A stretch of DNA of 63,172 bases, counting the filler, from an uncultured bacterium (GTDB lineage: Bacteria > DAOPZR01): the NCBI GenBank assembly GCA_964637655.1. It is 10 parts of 10 records of this genome, joined end to end, with 100 filler letters (N's around TTAATTAATTAA, not from the genome) between each part and the next. Parts side by side here need not be neighbours in the genome. Positions count along the whole stretch, not along the records: positions 38,383 to 44,580 come from CAZWUZ010000232.1; 9 more parts are not named here. One strand, written 5' to 3'. The position numbers and the translations under genes were made by a program. Positions 38,383-56,345 of this stretch are shown here, in pieces; positions within the stretch are counted from its first letter, which is position 1, and each line of letters opens with the position of its first letter. The notes under the pieces were generated by a model that did no database searches, was not told where the DNA came from, and saw only the letters and a list, made by a program, of their open reading frames with translations.

Positions 38383-39694
38383 CAAAACCTCTATCACCCT
38401 CGGCCTCTGCCGGGCACTGGCGCGCGCGGGCGTGACGGTACAGTCGTTCAAGGCGGGGCCTGACTACCTCGACCCGACCTGGCTGTCACGCGCGGCAGCA
38501 GCGCAATGCTGCAATCTCGACACCTGGATGAGCGGCATCCCCTACGTGCGCGCGCTCTGCGCGCGGCTGGCGCCGGCGCGCGGAGTGACCCTCATCGAAG
38601 GGGTGATGGGGATGTACGACGGTGCTGATGCGGCGAGCGACGCGGGGAGCACGGCGGAACTGGCGCGCGTGCTAAACGCACCCGTCATCCTCGTCGTCGA
38701 TGCGCGCGGCGCGGCCCGCAGCGTGGCGGCGACGGTGCGCGGCTTCCGCGATTTCGGTGATGCGAACATCGTCGGGGTCATCGCCAACCGCTGCGGTTCG
38801 GAGAAACATGTGCAGATGCTGCAACAGGCGCTGGCGTCGGCGAATCTGCCGCCGCTGGTCGGGGCGATACCCGACGGGGCATGGGGCGAACTGCCGTCGC
38901 GCCATCTCGGGCTGCTGCGCGCTGACGAGCGGGTGAGCGAACAAACCATCACGGCGCTGGCGGATGCCTGCGCACAGCACATCGACCTGAAGGCACTGCG
39001 CTACCTCGCGCGGCAGGCAGCGCAGCTGCCGGTACCGTCGCGCGAAACAAAGCGGAAAACACGCTGCCGCATCGCGGTGGCCTATGATGCGGCCTTCCAT
39101 TTCTACTACGCGGACAATCTTGCCCTGCTGGCGCGGCGCGGTGCGGAACTGGTCTACTTTTCGCCGCTGCGCGATAGGGCGCTGCCGCGCGACTGTGGCG
39201 CGGTCATCATCGGCGGCGGGTATCCCGAGGCGCACGCGGTGCAGTTGTCGCGCAACCGGGCGCTCATCCGCGCCCTGCGGGCGTTTGCCGCACGCGGCGG
39301 GGTCATCTACGGCGAATGCGGTGGCATGATGTATCTCGGTGAGGCGCTCATCGACGCGGCGGGAAAAAAGCATGCGATGGCGGGCGTCATCCCGGTGACG
39401 ACGCGCATGCGCCCGCGGCTGCAGGCACTCGGCTACGTGCAGGCGACGACATTGCAGCCGACACTCTTCGGGCCGGCAGGGACGGAATTGCGCGGTCATG
39501 AATTCAGGTACTCGGAAGTCGCTGCCGAGCGCGGCGACTGGGAACCCGCCTTCGCGGTGAGTGACGCGCGCGGAGAACAGGAGACGGTTGCCGGCTACGT
39601 TCGCGGCAGCGTGACCGCCAGCTACCTGCACCTGCATTTTGCCGCACATCCGGACCTCGCCGACCGTATTATCGCGGCTGCGAAAAAGCGCTGA
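38383..39694 (+). CDS. cbiA: Cobyrinate a,c-diamide synthase (5' partial)
   Basis: KT, FKAGPDYLDP, IEGVMG.YDG, AFHFYY, GGGYPE, GECGGMMYL, GHEFRYS, ASYLHLHF. Confidence 0.95.
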
Positions 39695-40731
39695 TGCTCG
39701 ATATACGCACGTTGCTGGCGGCCAACGCCGTCCTGCTGGCGGTCTTTTCCGTCATCTACCTGATCCTGCCGCGGCAGCTGAATGTGCGCGGCGTCATCAC
39801 CGAATTGCGGCGTCTCGTGCTCTTCCTGCTGGCCGGCATGGTGCTGCTGGCGCTGGCGGCGCCGGCGTATTGCGCGGCGGGGAGCAGCGCCGCGGCGTAC
39901 CTGCGCACGGGGCAGGGGGCGCGCCCGATGGGACTGGGCGGGGCCTATGTCGCCCTCGCGGAGGGGAGCCACGGGATGTACTGGAATCCCGGAGGGCTGG
40001 GTGTCGCGCGGCAGGCGGATGCGCTCTTCATGTACAACAGCAGTTTTGCGGACATCAACAACCAGTTCATCGCCTTTGCCTATCCCCTGCAGCAGGGGAC
40101 CATCGGCGGGGCGGTGACGTATGTCGATTACGGCAACATGGACCGGTACATGCTGACGGGGGCGACGACCTACAGCGCGCAGGGGAGTTTCGGCGCCAGC
40201 GATATGGCCATCGCGGTCGGCTACGGCAACCGGCTGCAGAACAGCGTTGGGGTCGGCATCTCGCTGAAGTACCTGCGCAGCAGCATCGAGAGCGAGGACG
40301 CCAGCGCGTTCGCCTGTGACCTCGGCCTGCTCTATCAGGAGGAGAACAGCCCGTGGCGCGTGGGGCTGGCGCTGACCAACCTCGGGACGAAAATGAAGTA
40401 CATCAGCAAAAAGGACAACCTGCCGCTCGATATCCGCGGCGGCTTCGCCTATACGCTGGCGGGGATGATCCCGGGAGCGCTGACGCTGGCATGCGACGTG
40501 CATAAGCCGGTGGACAACGATGCCGGGGTGAATGTCGGCCTCGAGTATGCCCCGGTGCAGCAGTTCGCGCTGCGGGTGGGCTACGACTCGCTGCAGGATG
40601 CGGGGAACGGGCTGACCGCGGGCGCTGGCTTCGCGGTGGAGCAGTTTGCGCTGGATTATGCGTGGGTTGACGGCGGCAAGCTCGACGACGCGCACCGGGT
40701 ATCGGTGAATTTCAAGTTCGGCGGGCAGTAG
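39694..40731 (+). CDS. PorV/PorQ-like (UPF0164) outer-membrane beta-barrel protein
   Basis: GARPMGLGGAYVALA...YWNPGGL, DLGLLY, NLG, ALRVGY, LDYA, HRVSVNFKF. Confidence 0.85.
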   Translation: MLDIRTLLAANAVLLAVFSVIYLILPRQLNVRGVITELRRLVLFLLAGMVLLALAAPAYCAAGSSAAAYLRTGQGARPMGLGGAYVALAEGSHGMYWNPGGLGVARQADALFMYNSSFADINNQFIAFAYPLQQGTIGGAVTYVDYGNMDRYMLTGATTYSAQGSFGASDMAIAVGYGNRLQNSVGVGISLKYLRSSIESEDASAFACDLGLLYQEENSPWRVGLALTNLGTKMKYISKKDNLPLDIRGGFAYTLAGMIPGALTLACDVHKPVDNDAGVNVGLEYAPVQQFALRVGYDSLQDAGNGLTAGAGFAVEQFALDYAWVDGGKLDDAHRVSVNFKFGGQ

Positions 40732-40951
40732 TCACAGACGCATCTTTGCGGTTGATTCAGTGTGTTTGGCGATATTCTTTGACGCTGCTGTGTGGGCGGA
40801 TAATTGTTGTAGTAAAAGCTGAGGAAGTTTAGCCTGCAAGTTGCTATAATTGGCGGCGGCCATCCGGATTATATAAAATCACTTGATTCCCATGAAATTG
40901 CTGCCCGGTTGTGGTATAATGCCTGGTAAGATGGAGTAATGGAGGTGGGCT

Positions 40952-41191
40952 ATGGGAAGAAGTACGGTGCAATGGACGGTAAGTTTACCGCCGTCGTTGT
41001 CCAAAAAGGCGCTCGCGGCGGCAAAAAACGAAGATCGGACAAAATCTGAATTTGTGCGCGAATCCATCCGGCAGTATCTGGAGCGACGGGCGCTGGAGGG
41101 TGTGCGCAACCGTTTGAGTCGGCGGTTCGCGGCAATGGGTATCCGGACGGAAGCAGACGTTGAACGGATGATTGATGAAGGCCGTCAGTAA
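40952..41191 (+). CDS. CopG/RHH antitoxin
   Basis: TVSLPPSL..AKNEDRTKSEFVRESIRQYL; GGAGG RBS. Confidence 0.88.
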   Translation: MGRSTVQWTVSLPPSLSKKALAAAKNEDRTKSEFVRESIRQYLERRALEGVRNRLSRRFAAMGIRTEADVERMIDEGRQ

Positions 41192-41603
41192 TAAACCGGT
41201 TGTTGTTTTCGACACGAATGTCCTGGTTTCCATGCTGGGTTTTCGCGGTCGCTTGATGGATGCGCTCCTGGCCCTGGTTGATGCGGGGATGGTGCAACCG
41301 TGCATATCCGAATTCATTATTGGTGAATTGGTGCGGAACCTGGCGGGTAAAGCGAAAATGTCCGAGGAAGATATTCATACTTCTGTCGGCTACCTTCGCG
41401 CCCGCTTCCGTTTGTTTGAATCTTCCGAACGGGTGACGAAAGTTGTAAATTGTGAAGCGGACAATCGCATACTTGAATGCGCGCTCGCGGCCGACGCTGA
41501 ATTTCTGGTTACCGGCAACTTCAAACATTTGCGGCCGATTGGCGATTATTGCGGAATCCGTATCGTGACCCCGCGAGAATTTATGGATATTTTCACCGCT
41601 TGA
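41175..41603 (+). CDS. PIN domain toxin (PIN_3 type)
   Basis: VVFDTNVLVS, E, DNRILECAL..AEFLVTGN, IVTPREF. Confidence 0.92.
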   Translation: MKAVSNKPVVVFDTNVLVSMLGFRGRLMDALLALVDAGMVQPCISEFIIGELVRNLAGKAKMSEEDIHTSVGYLRARFRLFESSERVTKVVNCEADNRILECALAADAEFLVTGNFKHLRPIGDYCGIRIVTPREFMDIFTA

Positions 41604-41811
41604 GTGTCGGTGTGGTGTATGCGGCAGAGGCGGTGCGGATCAGGTTGCGCTGCGGGTGGGCTACGACTCGCTGCAGGATGCTGGGAACGGGCTGACCGCG
41701 GGCGCGGGCTTCGGCGTCGAGCAGTTCCGCGTCGATTATGCCTAGGTCGACGGCGGGCACCTCGACGACGCCCACCGGGTATCCCTGAACTTCAAGTTCG
41801 GCGGCCAGTAA
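41601..41811 (+). pseudogene. Displaced copy of the porV-like 3' end with internal stop
   Basis: ALRVGYDSLQDAGNGLTAGAGFGVEQFRVDYA*VDGGHLDDAHRVSLNFKFGGQ*; DNA nearly identical to ~40567-40731. Confidence 0.9.
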
Positions 41812-41831
41812 CAAACATAAAAAACGCGTAC

Positions 41832-41861
41832 TTGACGGCAAAGAATATGGTGCAGTATAAT
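41832..41861 (+). promoter_or_regulatory. Promoter of the second TA pair
   Basis: TTGACG-18-TATAAT. Confidence 0.7.
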
Positions 41862-41919
41862 AACGGCGTGTTTTTGCTGTGACTAAGTGGCGAATTACCT
41901 CGGGTAGGGGAGGGCGAAT

Positions 41920-42147
41920 ATGCAGAGCACCATTGTCACACGGGGACAGACCGCAATACCAGCGCAAATTATGCGTCGGTATGGCATTAAGACACGGATG
42001 CGTCTTGAATGGATTGATGACGGCACAACGATTACTGTGAAACCTTGCGAACCTGAACCGCTAAAGGCATTGCGCGGCCGGTTCCGTGGAAGCAAACTGA
42101 TGCGCGCACTGCGTGTGTCCCGGGCCGGGGAACGGGCGCGTGGTTGA
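41920..42147 (+). CDS. AbrB/MazE-type antitoxin
   Basis: TIVTRGQTAIPAQIMRRYGIK...LEW..DGTTITVKP. Confidence 0.9.
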   Translation: MQSTIVTRGQTAIPAQIMRRYGIKTRMRLEWIDDGTTITVKPCEPEPLKALRGRFRGSKLMRALRVSRAGERARG

Positions 42148-42565
42148 GCGTTACCTGCTTGACACCTCGGCGTTGGTTGCTTTGTTGCTTGATGAACCTG
42201 GCGCGTCGACGGTGCAGGATTTGCTCAGAGCGGCGGGAAAAGCGGAAGCGTCGGTCAGTAGCGCTTCGGCTACCGTAACCGTCCTGTGCTATTTGCTGTG
42301 GCAGAGAGAGGGGGAAAGCGCGGCGAAGGCCGTAATGATTGATGTGCGCGCGCTTCCCGTGAAGGTTATTGACACCCACGAGCGCCTGGCATTGAGGGCG
42401 GCACGGTTGAAAGCGTTGTACCGGGTGTCATTTGCCGATGCGGTTATTGCGGCGACGGCGATGGAATGTGATGCAATACTTGTGCATAAAGACCCCGAAT
42501 ACTCTGAACTGATAAATGAGGTGCGGCAATTGGTTCTGCCGTTGAAAAAATCGTCTAAAAAATGA
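42140..42565 (+). CDS. vapC: VapC-type PIN toxin
   Basis: YLLDTSALVA, SFADAVIAATA, LVHKDPEY. Confidence 0.9.
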   Translation: MVERYLLDTSALVALLLDEPGASTVQDLLRAAGKAEASVSSASATVTVLCYLLWQREGESAAKAVMIDVRALPVKVIDTHERLALRAARLKALYRVSFADAVIAATAMECDAILVHKDPEYSELINEVRQLVLPLKKSSKK

Positions 42566-42610
42566 ATCTTTAACGCTCCATCCGGCGGTGGCGCGTAGAC
42601 GTTCAGTAAA

Positions 42611-42883
42611 ATGGGATTTATCCCCGGCGCGCTGCTGCTGGCCTGCGACGTGCACAAGCCGGTGGACAACGATGCCGGGGTGAATGTCGGCCTCGAGTAT
42701 GCCCCGGTGCAGCAGTTCGCGCTGCGCGTGGGCTACGACTCGCTGCAGGATGCGGGGAACGGGCTGACCGCGGGCGCGGGTTTCGGCGTCGAGCAGTTTC
42801 GCGTCGATTATGCTTGGGTCGACGGCGGGCACCTCGACGACGCGCACCGGGTATCCCTCAACTTCAGGTTCGGCGCGGAATAG
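42611..42883 (+). pseudogene. Second displaced copy of the porV-like 3' end (last ~87 codons, open frame)
   Basis: IPGAL.LACDVHKPVDNDAGVNVGLEYAPVQQFALRVGYDSLQDAGNGLTAGAGF almost identical to 40468-40731; ends FRFGAE*. Confidence 0.9.
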
Positions 42884-43282
42884 CTACTTCTTGCGGTAGG
42901 GCGGTTTGAGGTTATTGAACATCGGGTAGTGGCGTGTATTGAGGGTGATCAGTTCGGCTCCGGCAGATTGAGCGGTAGCTGCGATGATGCAGTCAGCCAG
43001 ACCGACACCATGCGATTTGGCAAAGTCACGCTGCCAGAGCCCGCCCGTTCTGGCAATTTCGGCAGTGAGGGGGAGGAGGCGGAACGAGGCGAGAAAATCA
43101 TCGAGTATCGCCAGTTCGGCGTCATCCCTGATGCCGGCGTAGAGTTCTGCAGCGACCATTGCCGGCAGCAGGATGGATTCCTGATGCCGGGTGATGAAAT
43201 CGACCGCTGCTCGGCGCCCGCGCAGAAAATCAATCAGGACATCGGTATCGACCAGCAGCTGGCGCTGCACCGCATCAGCCAC
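42884..43282 (-). CDS. vapC: VapC-type PIN toxin
   Basis: LLVDTDVLIDFLRG, AELYAG, LADCIIAATA, TLNTRHYP. Confidence 0.93.
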   Translation of the reverse strand: MADAVQRQLLVDTDVLIDFLRGRRAAVDFITRHQESILLPAMVAAELYAGIRDDAELAILDDFLASFRLLPLTAEIARTGGLWQRDFAKSHGVGLADCIIAATAQSAGAELITLNTRHYPMFNNLKPPYRKK

Positions 43283-43508
43283 GGTGCCACGAGGCGCGCA
43301 ACGAACGTGCCGAGGGAAGATCAGTACGCTTCTTCCACATACCGGCGGCCCGGGCTAATGCCTGGCGGCGGCAGACGGCAGCTGATTGAGACAAAAAACG
43401 GTCGAGGGCCTCACGTATCAGGTCGCTGTATTTTCTGCCACTGGCAAGTGACAGGGCTGCCAGACCGTCCCGTTCACGCCGGGTGAGATAAATCTGCGTT
43501 CGCACCAT
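43275..43508 (-). CDS. CopG/RHH antitoxin
   Basis: MVRTQIYLT..SDLIREALDRFL; GGAGG RBS; upstream TTGACA-17-TACTGT with GATGTA/TACATC inverted repeat. Confidence 0.9.
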   Translation of the reverse strand: MVRTQIYLTRRERDGLAALSLASGRKYSDLIREALDRFLSQSAAVCRRQALARAAGMWKKRTDLPSARSLRASWHRG

Positions 43509-43621
43509 AGCCACCCTCCAACGATGTATACACCACAGTACTACATCACTATACTGCTGTCAAGGGCGGAAGTGTCCGTGACCGGCATGCGCCCGGGGCA
43601 CATACTGCCGCTGTCGGTGTG

Positions 43622-44341
43622 TTATCGCTGCTGAAACACGAATGCGTGGTTGGTGGGGCCGTGGCCATGCCCGAGGGGCAGGGCGTGGCGTATCGCCTCC
43701 GTGACAAAGCGCTTGGCGGTGCTGACCGCTTCACGCGGATGCTGTCCCTGTCCGAGCGCAGTGGCGCAGGCGGCGGCGAAGGTGCAGCCGGTGCCGTGCG
43801 TGTTCTTCGTCGCCAGGCGCGGGGCGGGGAGTTCGCTGTAGGCGCTGCCGTCGTAAAAGACGTCGATGGCATCGCCCTGTTCCAGATGTCCCCCCTTGAT
43901 GACGACGGTTTGCGCGCCCAGGGCATGAATGGCCGCGGCGGCGCGATGCATCGCCGCCAGGTCGGGAATGGCGAAAGCGCAGAGCACTTCCGCTTCGGGG
44001 ATGTTCGGGGTGACGATGGTCGCGAGCGGCAGCAGGCGACTGAAGAGCGCGGCCTGCGCACCGTCATAGAAGATCGGGGCGCCACCCATGGCGCGCAGCA
44101 CCGGATCGACGACGAGCGCCGGGCGCCCGGAGCCGTGCAGCAAATCCGCCACCGCCTCGATGACGTCACTGCTGCCGAGCATCCCGGTCTTGACCGCGTC
44201 GGCGCCGATATCGCTCATCACCGCGTCGAACTGCGCGCGGATGAAGTCGACCGGCACGGCATGCACGCCATGCACCCCGAGGGTGTTCTGCGAAGTCAAC
44301 GCGGTGATGAAAATAATGCCGAACCCGCCCAGCGCGGTGAT
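43622..44341 (-). CDS. thiD: Hydroxymethylpyrimidine/phosphomethylpyrimidine kinase, N-terminus replaced by foreign sequence
   Basis: ITALTSQNT, VKTGML, VVDPV, TPNIPEA, KGGH, THGTGCT, GHGPTNH; the IAGSD.GGAGIQAD start is absent. Confidence 0.88.
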   Translation of the reverse strand: MTALGGFGIIFITALTSQNTLGVHGVHAVPVDFIRAQFDAVMSDIGADAVKTGMLGSSDVIEAVADLLHGSGRPALVVDPVLRAMGGAPIFYDGAQAALFSRLLPLATIVTPNIPEAEVLCAFAIPDLAAMHRAAAAIHALGAQTVVIKGGHLEQGDAIDVFYDGSAYSELPAPRLATKNTHGTGCTFAAACATALGQGQHPREAVSTAKRFVTEAIRHALPLGHGHGPTNHAFVFQQR

Positions 44342-44389
44342 GAAGATCTGGATTCTGTTCCAAACCAGGTCGATCGTAACATCTCTCAT
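44342..44389 (-). other. Phage holin-like N-terminus fused in frame to thiD
   Basis: GGAGG RBS then MRDVTIDLVWNRIQIFITALGG, like N-termini of Firmicutes phage holins. Confidence 0.55.
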
Positions 44390-44392
44390 GTC

Positions 44393-44580
44393 TCAAATAA
44401 CCTCCGTATACTTCTCGCTGATCCATAAGACCTCGCCGCCTAACAGGATCGGGACCCAGCCGAGCGTGTTCGCTTGCGTCAGCAGCAAGCCTTTTTTGAC
44501 CGCCTTCACAATGTCGAAATTGGTGTCAGGCCCGGTCCGTATATTTACCGAATCCCCGGTGACGCGAATGGCCTTGGTCG
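44393..44580 (-). CDS. SH3b domain C-terminus, endolysin-like (5' partial)
   Basis: IRVTGDSVNIRTGPDTNFDIVKAVKKG..GWVPI..LWISEKYT; lower GC than the host. Confidence 0.75.
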
Positions 44581-56094: not shown

Positions 56095-56204
56095 AGGGCA
56101 CCTCACCGTATGTTGTTGCCTGACATTTCAGTATAGCATACTCTTCGTTTCTGTTCAGGCTGCGCAGGCATGTTGGAGCGCTGCTCAGCCACCTTGCCCC
56201 CTGA

Positions 56205-56345
56205 TATCCTGCTACGCGACCGCGGTTGCGGCATAGGTCACCGCAATCGTCAGCGGGAGCGCCGTCCGTCTCCCGGGTCGCCTGTATCCTGGTGCGCGAC
56301 TGCGGTTGCAGCAAAGGGCACCGCAATCGTCAGCGGGAGCGCCGT
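56205..56345. repeat. Two ~61-bp direct repeats with internal hairpins, period 80 bp
   Basis: TATCCTG..GCGAC.GCGGTTGC..CACCGCAATCGTCAGCGGGAGCGCCGT at 56205-56265 and 56285-56345. Confidence 0.85.

Follow-up and report, generated by a model that had tools for sequence, protein, structure and literature searches.

The 3' end of a gene for a PorV/PorQ-family outer-membrane barrel protein appears to have collected foreign toxin-antitoxin (TA) gene pairs in a 63,172-nt stretch of DNA (hereafter the window) from an uncultured bacterium of the lineage DAOPZR01 (assembly GCA_964637655.1). We favour, with a probability of about one half, an explanation in which serial recombination inside the tail of this gene regenerates the gene and pushes its old tails downstream, while TA addiction protects the resulting array from loop-out. 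The order along the DNA is a cbiA/cobB-type gene, the barrel gene, TA cassette A, a displaced copy of the barrel gene's 3' end (tail 2), cassette B, another displaced copy (tail 3), an inverted cassette C and a thiD-like gene. Repeat and domain searches thus confirm the layout given in the original prediction, which listed a full barrel gene, a TA pair, a 3'-end copy with an internal stop, a TA pair, a second 3'-end copy and an inverted TA pair. Far from being continuous genomic sequence, the window consists of ten contigs arranged in falling size order, from 6,353 down to 6,062 nt, whose joins are marked by 18 runs of 44 N paired around TTAATTAATTAA (N44-TTAATTAATTAA-N44 linkers). The whole feature lies within a single linker-bounded contig of 6,198 nt (38383-44580), a draft piece of a fragmented assembly; genes outside these limits are not its neighbours, and our statements on neighbouring and missing genes hold for this contig only.

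The central observation is a single repeat family with three copies, which a repeat search placed at 40461-40731, 41541-41811 and 42613-42883. Pairwise blastn gave 89.4% identity over 265 nt between the first and third copies (40468-40731 and 42620-42883, E 3e-96), 91.9% over 173 nt between the second and third (41631-41803 and 42705-42875, E 2e-66) and 86.2% over 181 nt between the first and second (40553-40730 and 41631-41810, E 7e-54), a similarity that on these alignments is far beyond chance. Tail 1 (40459-40731, plus strand) is the live 3' end, comprising the final 90 codons of the barrel gene, and is of the type AVEQFALDYAWVDGGKL..SVNFKFGGQ. Tail 2 (41600-41811, plus strand) is a 5'-truncated orphan that is clean from about 41645 and in which TAG replaces the invariant Trp codon TGG at 41743-41745; its decayed edge (41600-41644) holds 8 nt of extra, frame-breaking bases and keeps collinear similarity to the gene (p 0.002). 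Tail 3 (42611-42883, plus strand), likewise 5'-truncated, retains an open frame of 90 codons of the type GVEQFRVDYAWVDGGHL..SLNFRFGAE, and may have a decayed extension at 42574-42610 with an in-frame TAG, for which p is 0.015 when collinear and only 0.08 against the whole gene. The peptide motifs previously given for the orphan and live ends proved correct on re-reading.

The boundaries of these copies differ between their two sides. All three tails cease matching exactly at the stop codon, and the 45 nt past each of the three stops showed no similarity above that of shuffled sequence (p 0.46, 0.23 and 0.81). On the upstream side, the orphans begin at different positions of the gene, about 212 and 271-313 nt from its stop. 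Tail 2 sets in at the toxin A stop codon, where TGAGTGTCGG corresponds to TGAATGTCGG of the gene, a 9/10 microhomology, with 0 nt between toxin stop and tail.

Each tail is followed by a small cassette. Cassette A (40732-41603, plus strand) carries a promoter-like site (40892-40920), a ribbon-helix-helix (RHH) antitoxin gene (40952-41191; RHH_1 22.5 bits against a gathering score of 20.5) and a PIN_3 toxin gene that starts at 41172 or 41175 and ends at 41603 (56.6 bits, cut-off 27, E 5.8e-15). Cassette B (41812-42565, plus strand) has its promoter-like site at 41832-41861 (TTGACG-18-TATAAT), followed by an open reading frame (ORF) in the antitoxin position (41920-42147) with sub-threshold PrlF/MazE matches (E 0.04-0.14) and by a PIN toxin gene running from 42113 or 42140 to 42565 (57.2 bits, cut-off 23.6, E 3.3e-15). 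Cassette C (42884-43621) is inverted and so occupies the minus strand, where a VapC-type PIN toxin gene (42884-43282; 64.7 bits, cut-off 23.6, E 1.5e-17), whose stop codon directly abuts that of tail 3, is accompanied by an antitoxin-position ORF (43275 to 43508 or 43514) with a sub-threshold RHH_1 match (E 0.07). All three toxins thus exceed the Pfam gathering score for PIN-type domains. Toxin C additionally aligns lengthwise with the solved VapC structure 7by2_B, with its D, E, D and N positions aligned, and toxins A and B gave no PDB match. The antitoxin-then-toxin order and overlapping genes are seen in three of three pairs; antitoxin A alone reaches its family threshold, antitoxins B and C having been assigned by position, size and overlap with the toxin gene together with their sub-threshold matches. 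We therefore treat the three as putative type II VapBC-like TA pairs with presumed TA activity.

The composition of the cassettes sets them apart from the DNA around them. Their GC contents are 50.8, 53.8 and 59.3% for A, B and C, respectively, against 66-68% for the flanking genes and tails, and GC at third codon positions is likewise lower in the TA genes (53-67%) than in host genes (80-89%) or in tails 1 and 3 (85-86%). By this contrast the tails are native-type DNA and the cassettes foreign imports; the earlier claim that the first two pairs are more AT-rich than the host was well founded and can be widened to cassette C. The three pairs were also correctly described as unrelated to one another, the best cross-match being one of only 30% identity over 36 aa between the PIN domains of B and C (E 0.002-0.003). 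Toxin A has 386 relatives at E <=1e-10, of 135-147 aa, the best non-self match being 49% identical, and toxin B has 1,214 at E <=0.001, the best at 47%. Judged by their lengths against these homologues, toxins A and B are full-length, and neither cassette A nor cassette B appears to be a commonly sampled element. A variant of toxin B that is identical at 149 of 150 residues (P0325) is encoded on a separate contig of 978 nt, approximately the span between the tail identity blocks described below, which points to a second copy or strain and to a break near the repeats in another assembly. Cassette A DNA gave no match when searched against plasmids.

Promoter-like sites are enriched on the contig (six, compared with 1.9 +/- 1.5 in shuffles), and the top two lie upstream of antitoxins A and B. 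The proposal that every pair has its own promoter consequently holds for cassettes A and B, where the sites are strong, and is not borne out for C, where none was called. A defence role for the pairs, which had been raised as a possibility, found no support, as none of the six TA proteins matched a PADLOC model. Elsewhere in the window, a second TA locus on another contig (49989-50707, minus strand) consists of a PIN_3 toxin gene, its product 31% identical to toxin A, and a small ORF upstream of that gene; its surroundings showed no repeated gene tails.

The pattern of divergence among the tails bears on how the orphans arose. Third codon positions account for 21 of 35 differences in the comparison of tails 1 and 3, 16 of 23 in that of tails 1 and 2, and 10 of 14 in that of tails 2 and 3 (binomial p against one third, 0.001, 0.0004 and 0.004, respectively). 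Because this bias extends to the orphan-orphan pair, most of the divergence arose within working genes and not by neutral decay following duplication in situ. Searching with the ORF of tail 3 retrieved three proteins, and tail 3 shares a 90%-identity cluster with P0051, a full-length relative of 308 aa encoded on a 21,860-nt contig that is identical to the live barrel protein at 245 of 291 positions (84%). P0051 ends in the orphan type (GVEQFRVDYAWVDGGHL..SLNFAFGAE): over the last 35 residues it is matched at 34 of 35 positions by tail 3 and at 31 of 34 by tail 2, compared with 27 of 35 by the live tail, and identity among the alternative ends, or between them and P0051, is 77-97%. Given that a full-length protein ends in this way, a related genome uses the orphan type as a genuine, functional C-terminus. 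Tails 2 and 3 moreover have in common a compensated pair of indels, which changes FAL to FRV, and 16 nucleotide states that differ from tail 1, the latter all 3' of the near-identity block considered next, and on these characters they are sisters. Overall, the comparisons favour displaced functional ends over in-situ decay as the origin of the orphans. They lend no support to the suggestion that the array varies the C-terminus of a surface protein, since the alternative ends differ at only eight of the last 35 residues and most of these changes are conservative.

Within the tails, one segment is far more similar than its surroundings. Only one of the 35 sites that distinguish tail 1 from tail 3 falls in a block of 120 nt (40504-40623, plus strand; counterpart 42656-42775 in tail 3), and in 20,000 shuffles no stretch was so clean, whether codon positions were preserved or not. 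Tail 2 shares the 3' ~58 nt of this block (about 41647-41704), and over the shared 58-120 nt the three tails carry one private change each. Because identity at synonymous sites is not explained by protein constraint, the block points to a recent crossover or gene conversion; considered alongside the decayed 5' edges, it suggests that exchange with a live gene has refreshed each tail in its 3' part but not at its outermost edge. We found no folded structure resembling att or attC sites at the block or the junctions (z-scores -0.1 to -1.4, five of five segments folding no better than shuffles), and an Rfam search that admitted hits up to E 1 gave nothing on the contig. Domains of an integrase, transposase or recombinase were found neither on the contig nor in 36 ORFs of the nine other, unlinked contigs (~60 kb), in keeping with the original statement that no integrase or transposase is present, which must be read against linked DNA of only 6.2 kb.

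Based on these observations, we propose that foreign type II TA units of ~1.07 kb have entered at the 3' end of the barrel gene on two or more occasions. At each entry, a tail copy joined to the incoming cassette would have recombined with the resident tail inside the final 170-270 nt of the gene. This exchange could take the form of a single-crossover (Campbell-type) insertion of a tail-plus-TA unit or, alternatively, of homologous recombination on the gene side combined with an illegitimate joint on the far side, an arrangement that has been proposed for type VI secretion effector-immunity arrays and rhs (PMC5361080). In either form the gene would be rebuilt with a partly new end, its former end would be displaced downstream as a 5'-truncated orphan, and the process would repeat, leaving an array ordered from newest to oldest away from the gene (A, B, C). 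The TA pairs would penalise loop-out between the direct tail repeats, and it may be because ~1 kb units are protected from loss in this way that TA modules, of all genes, are found at the array; any change to the barrel's C-terminus would be a by-product. We infer the order of events, the kind of recombination, the TA activity and its stabilising role. The original view of the orphans as once-functional ends that successive events displaced and stacked is supported indirectly by the third-position bias, the end of P0051, the full-length toxins A and B, the tail 2 that abuts a toxin stop and the GC gradient (A < B < C), which fits an oldest-farthest order.

Several observations weigh against this explanation. 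The GC gradient could simply reflect different donors. The pattern is known from a single locus on one draft contig of 6.2 kb, and that contig has two other odd junctions, at the 5' ends of the barrel ORF and of thiD. The match of the live tail to P0051 is unremarkable for these two genes, since 61 of the 257 35-residue windows are as low or lower; because the tail diverges no more than the rest of the gene, import of the live tail is not demonstrated, and arrival of a new tail with cassette A fits equally well with a whole live gene and orphans that come from different lineages. Toxins A and B have no relative above 49% identity apart from the one near-identical toxin B, so that mobility of the cassettes is unproven. 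Finally, a sample of 78 related loci (1.1 Mb), obtained from a scan of genome contigs and at most 55% identical over the full-length gene, yielded no high-identity orphan tail in tblastn searches with the N- and C-terminal parts of the barrel, extra tails being confined to the window, and none of the TA genes of the array was found in these loci.

Closer inspection of the same sample gave a handful of partial resemblances. Tail-only matches occurred at two loci: L076, which is 77% identical over the last 64 residues and in which the gene is cut by the contig edge and then followed by an unrelated large protein, and L067, where a weak second match of 26% identity lies upstream of the gene. Six of the 78 loci were matched by the N-terminal barrel part only. 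The closest locus fetched, L001, has a single barrel gene followed by unrelated genes, and two family members within 10 kb of each other occur in the distant relatives L002, L012, L013 and L068, 6-9 kb apart with other genes between. A direct-repeat scan (80-600 nt, 0.4-4 kb apart) returned 54 pairs, of which two, in L002 and L012, begin just downstream of the barrel gene; these two pairs, the only ones inspected, were rejected as gene tails and are repeated 5' regions of genes for large secreted proteins. Large secreted proteins of this kind stand beside the barrel gene in L001 (1-1137), L002 (4417-7002 and 7133-9871) and L012 (2396-5116, 6313-8931 and 9222-11846), and they share C-terminal ends (..YPNPWK/FKP.. 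GVY.YLL .. GK.A.IK/R) that we take to resemble the type IX secretion sorting domain. No such secreted cargo gene is present on the window contig. Outside the window, P0050, an ORF of 117 aa from a 30,732-nt contig, is 72% identical to the end of P0051, carries the changes Tyr>Cys, NF>HC and Phe>Leu and has lost the usual stop; it appears to be a decayed copy of the barrel tail and may be an orphan tail in another genome.

The main rival to serial homologous recombination is site-specific accretion, in which miniature or eroded integrative elements would target the 3' end of the barrel gene and supply a replacement end through a tyrosine or serine recombinase that is encoded elsewhere or has been lost; the units would then be cis-mobilisable remnants and the tails a regenerated target with its displaced fragments. 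A regenerated target with a displaced fragment, together with tandem arrays (125 tandems of two or more among 3,919 islands; PMC4383910), is the hallmark of integrative islands (PMC4383910, PMC5704250), and icd and icdC, which flank e14, provide a protein-gene precedent (PMC13626634). At our locus, too, the repeats are direct, the clean part of each orphan reaches the gene stop, and the decayed 5' edges could be att arms carried by an element. Yet the orphans start at different distances from the stop (about 212 versus 271-313 nt), which leaves no shared 5' crossover point, the z-scores of -0.1 to -1.4 give no att-like fold, and erosion of an island would have had to trim exactly to the TA genes, with 0 nt from the stop of toxin A to tail 2. 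The lack of a recombinase on the contig and in the 36 ORFs of the nine unlinked contigs (~60 kb) points the same way, though as weak evidence. We consider accretion of this kind unlikely. Still less probable, in our view, though far from negligible, is an artefact of assembly or strain mixture, whereby the orphan tails exist and their serial order is a path through a graph of strains or paralogues that share a near-identical tail block. The 6.2-kb draft contig from a fragmented assembly, which also counts against our own explanation, the 58-120 nt of shared tail sequence at which an assembler could switch paths, the two other suspicious junctions (the kinase-like barrel start described below and the 5' end of thiD) and the near-identical toxin B (149/150) on a 978-nt contig, indicating another assembly break or a second strain, are all compatible with it. 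Against this, the shared blocks are shorter than ordinary reads, and simple allelic variants give bubbles, not cycles, in an assembly graph. Because the junctions between cassette ends and truncated tails lie in unique sequence, and because the nonsense codon and frame-breaking 8-nt insertion of tail 2 mark it as a true pseudogene fragment, the fusion of at least two truncated tails to complete toxin genes must be real in some sampled genome.

Two further explanations are unlikely. Three full barrel genes with TA pairs between them could have lost the 5' three quarters of copies 2 and 3, and divergence biased towards third positions is indeed what functional paralogues would also show; the presence of two family members within 10 kb in L002, L012, L013 and L068 fits such a history as well. 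Those pairs, however, are separated by 6-9 kb of DNA that holds other genes, only one barrel gene occurs in L001, the closest locus fetched, and decay of this sort would take two independent deletions, each of which eliminated a promoter, a start and the gene body and came to a halt at a toxin stop or no more than 45 nt from it. The 120-nt block and the match between tail 3 and P0051 point instead to recent exchange and not to old paralogy, and we regard decayed tandem paralogues as very unlikely. The least credible of the explanations is programmed variation, with the orphan tails acting as silent cassettes that switch the C-terminal strands of the barrel in the manner of silent pilin copies. 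The open frame of tail 3 would suit this, as would the position of the 120-nt block, which lies upstream of the variable part and would guide recombination; but the ends that would be exchanged differ at only eight of 35 residues, for the most part conservatively, tail 2 is already a pseudogene, and recombination between direct repeats would delete the TA pairs and not switch the end reversibly.

The architecture as a whole combines features of three known arrangements, namely the target fragments of integrative elements, arrays of displaced C-terminal ends, and islets made up of TA genes only; a literature search for TA cassettes alternating with displaced gene ends found no description. Integrative islands and prophages, including those at tRNA and tmRNA genes, e14 in icd with its fragment icdC, tandem arrays and cis-mobilisable remnants without an integrase (CIMEs), share with our locus an intact target, direct repeats of the target's 3' end, a 5'-truncated fragment on the far side and serial stacking (PMC4383910, PMC13626634, PMC5704250). 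As in islands, the target fragment at our locus lies beyond the inserted DNA and has the same orientation as the target gene, and the integrase that islands carry was found neither on the contig nor in the 36 ORFs of the nine unlinked contigs. Compared with islands and cis-mobilisable elements, the units described here are of ~1.07 kb and comprise a TA pair and its promoter alone, no integrase is seen, and the starts of the fragments vary. Where islands have a short identical core, the repeats here are 170-270 nt long with allele-like divergence; the orphans start at different positions, and the near-identical stretch of 58 nt that they share is without distinctive structure.

Polymorphic toxin arrays (rhs, cdiA and type VI secretion effector-immunity loci) offer a second likeness, as a new 3' end enters them with linked small genes and older ends are kept downstream as orphans (PMC5361080). 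By contrast, the barrel has no toxin domain, the segment that would be swapped has nearly the same protein sequence, and the linked genes are intracellular TA pairs instead of matched immunity genes, which removes the logic of toxin diversification. Rhs and contact-dependent inhibition systems are recognised by a large delivery region, a demarcation motif, a variable toxin domain and an immunity gene, none of which describes a barrel of 308-345 aa. The analogy to their orphan C-terminal arrays that had been drawn for this locus is therefore apt for the displacement logic and does not extend to the gene, which is no polymorphic toxin. Chromosomal TA islets that lack mobile-element genes are similarly compact, of foreign composition, made up of TA genes only and situated beside a host gene, and homologous recombination at the core genes on either side has been proposed as their means of spread (PMC13617665); likewise, direct repeats of 152 bp lie on both sides of a ParDE-like pair found downstream of the MaOC1 gene (PMC7935541). 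In contrast to our locus, the repeats of those systems are not the coding end of the neighbouring gene, and the available parts of these two sources describe no serial stack of displaced ends (PMC13617665, PMC7935541). Chromosomal integrons rich in TA cassettes also hold serial, single-function cassettes of roughly 1 kb with their own promoters. Unlike integrons, the locus has no detected intI or attI and no folded attC-like sites, its junction segments fold no better than shuffles, no recombinase was found, and the repeat is a piece of a host gene. A newest-first order is expected of integron arrays, in which TA cassettes are thought to stabilise the array. A parallel with integrons is itself drawn in PMC5361080.

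The barrel gene itself occupies 39694-40731 on the plus strand, and its product scores 201.9 bits against NF033709 (cut-off 90) over residues 65-342, which places it in the PorV/PorQ family. It falls below the equivalog cut-offs for PorV and PorQ proper of the type IX secretion system (NF033710 and NF033711; 87.9 against 250 for PorV and 136.8 against 220 for PorQ) and, at 26.7, slightly below the Pfam PorV cut-off of 27. Over its 308-345 aa, domain matches are to PorV/OMP_b-brl only. The protein is rare, with 46 proteins at E <=0.001, the nearest among the matches listed being 74% identical. The start of the ORF is unusual in that codons 1-53 (39694-39852) match the N-terminus of P0031, an unrelated PAS/HisKA/HATPase histidine kinase of 591 aa encoded on a different contig of 6,293 nt; we count one mismatch by eye over the 53 codons, and BLASTP and tblastn align 37/37 and 49/50. 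The relative P0051 has an ordinary signal peptide at this point, joining between LLAL and AAPAYC. The actual start of the barrel is likely TTG at 39805 (M-RRLVLFLLAGMVLLALAAPAYC), and the kinase-like beginning of the ORF reflects either a genuine rearrangement that kept the reading frame or a chimeric join made by one of the two assemblies.

On the left of the barrel gene lies the cbiA/cobB-type amidotransferase gene (38384-39694, plus strand; Pfam GATase_3 E 2.7e-44, CbiA E 2.9e-4), whose 5' end is lost at the contig edge and whose stop overlaps the ATG at 39694. The right flank is the thiD-like gene (43622-44389, minus strand), which matches Pfam Phos_pyr_kin at E 3.3e-80 over profile positions 15-246. 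This ORF is without the conserved N-terminal segment of solved ThiD proteins, with PDB alignments that begin at chain residues 25-49, and its initial 18 residues are unrelated; its 5' end appears to have been replaced, and it also contains a 33-nt imperfect direct repeat (44297-44314 and 44330-44347) that encodes IFITAL twice. An AT-richer ORF ends three bases upstream of the thiD-like ORF and runs off the contig, with a sub-threshold match to a bacterial SH3 domain (25.6 bits, cut-off 27). The junction on the thiD side, within 43622-44580 on the minus strand, is a possible second insertion junction. With both the barrel ORF start and the thiD 5' end odd, the locus is not the clean cbiA-porV-thiD arrangement that had been assumed. 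Other repeats in the window include two regions of one contig (9075-10160 and 11717-12802) that are 70% identical over 1,086 nt, the first within a gene for a Ser/Thr kinase with Kelch repeats, and that are probably tandem paralogues, as well as an 89% identical direct repeat of about 66 nt whose copies (56200-56265 and 56281-56345) start 81 nt apart.

How chromosomal TA modules spread outside recognisable mobile elements is still debated. Two complete TA pairs bracketed by allele-like ends of a host gene would provide a concrete, testable route for that spread. A more far-reaching version of serial tail recombination, which we think quite unlikely, is that the units are minimal mobile cassettes, each a TA pair joined to the 3' end of a host gene that acts as a portable homology handle, moved into and out of the chromosome by the homologous recombination of the host without a recombinase of their own, always regenerating the gene they enter and held in place by addiction. 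If true, this would amount to an integrase-free, integron-like cassette system and could explain how TA modules move without mobile-element genes. Should the pattern recur, the succession of gene tail, small cassette and displaced tail would become a search rule, much as tRNA fragments are for islands; if it does not, the locus would be a single example of serial displacement at a protein-coding gene.

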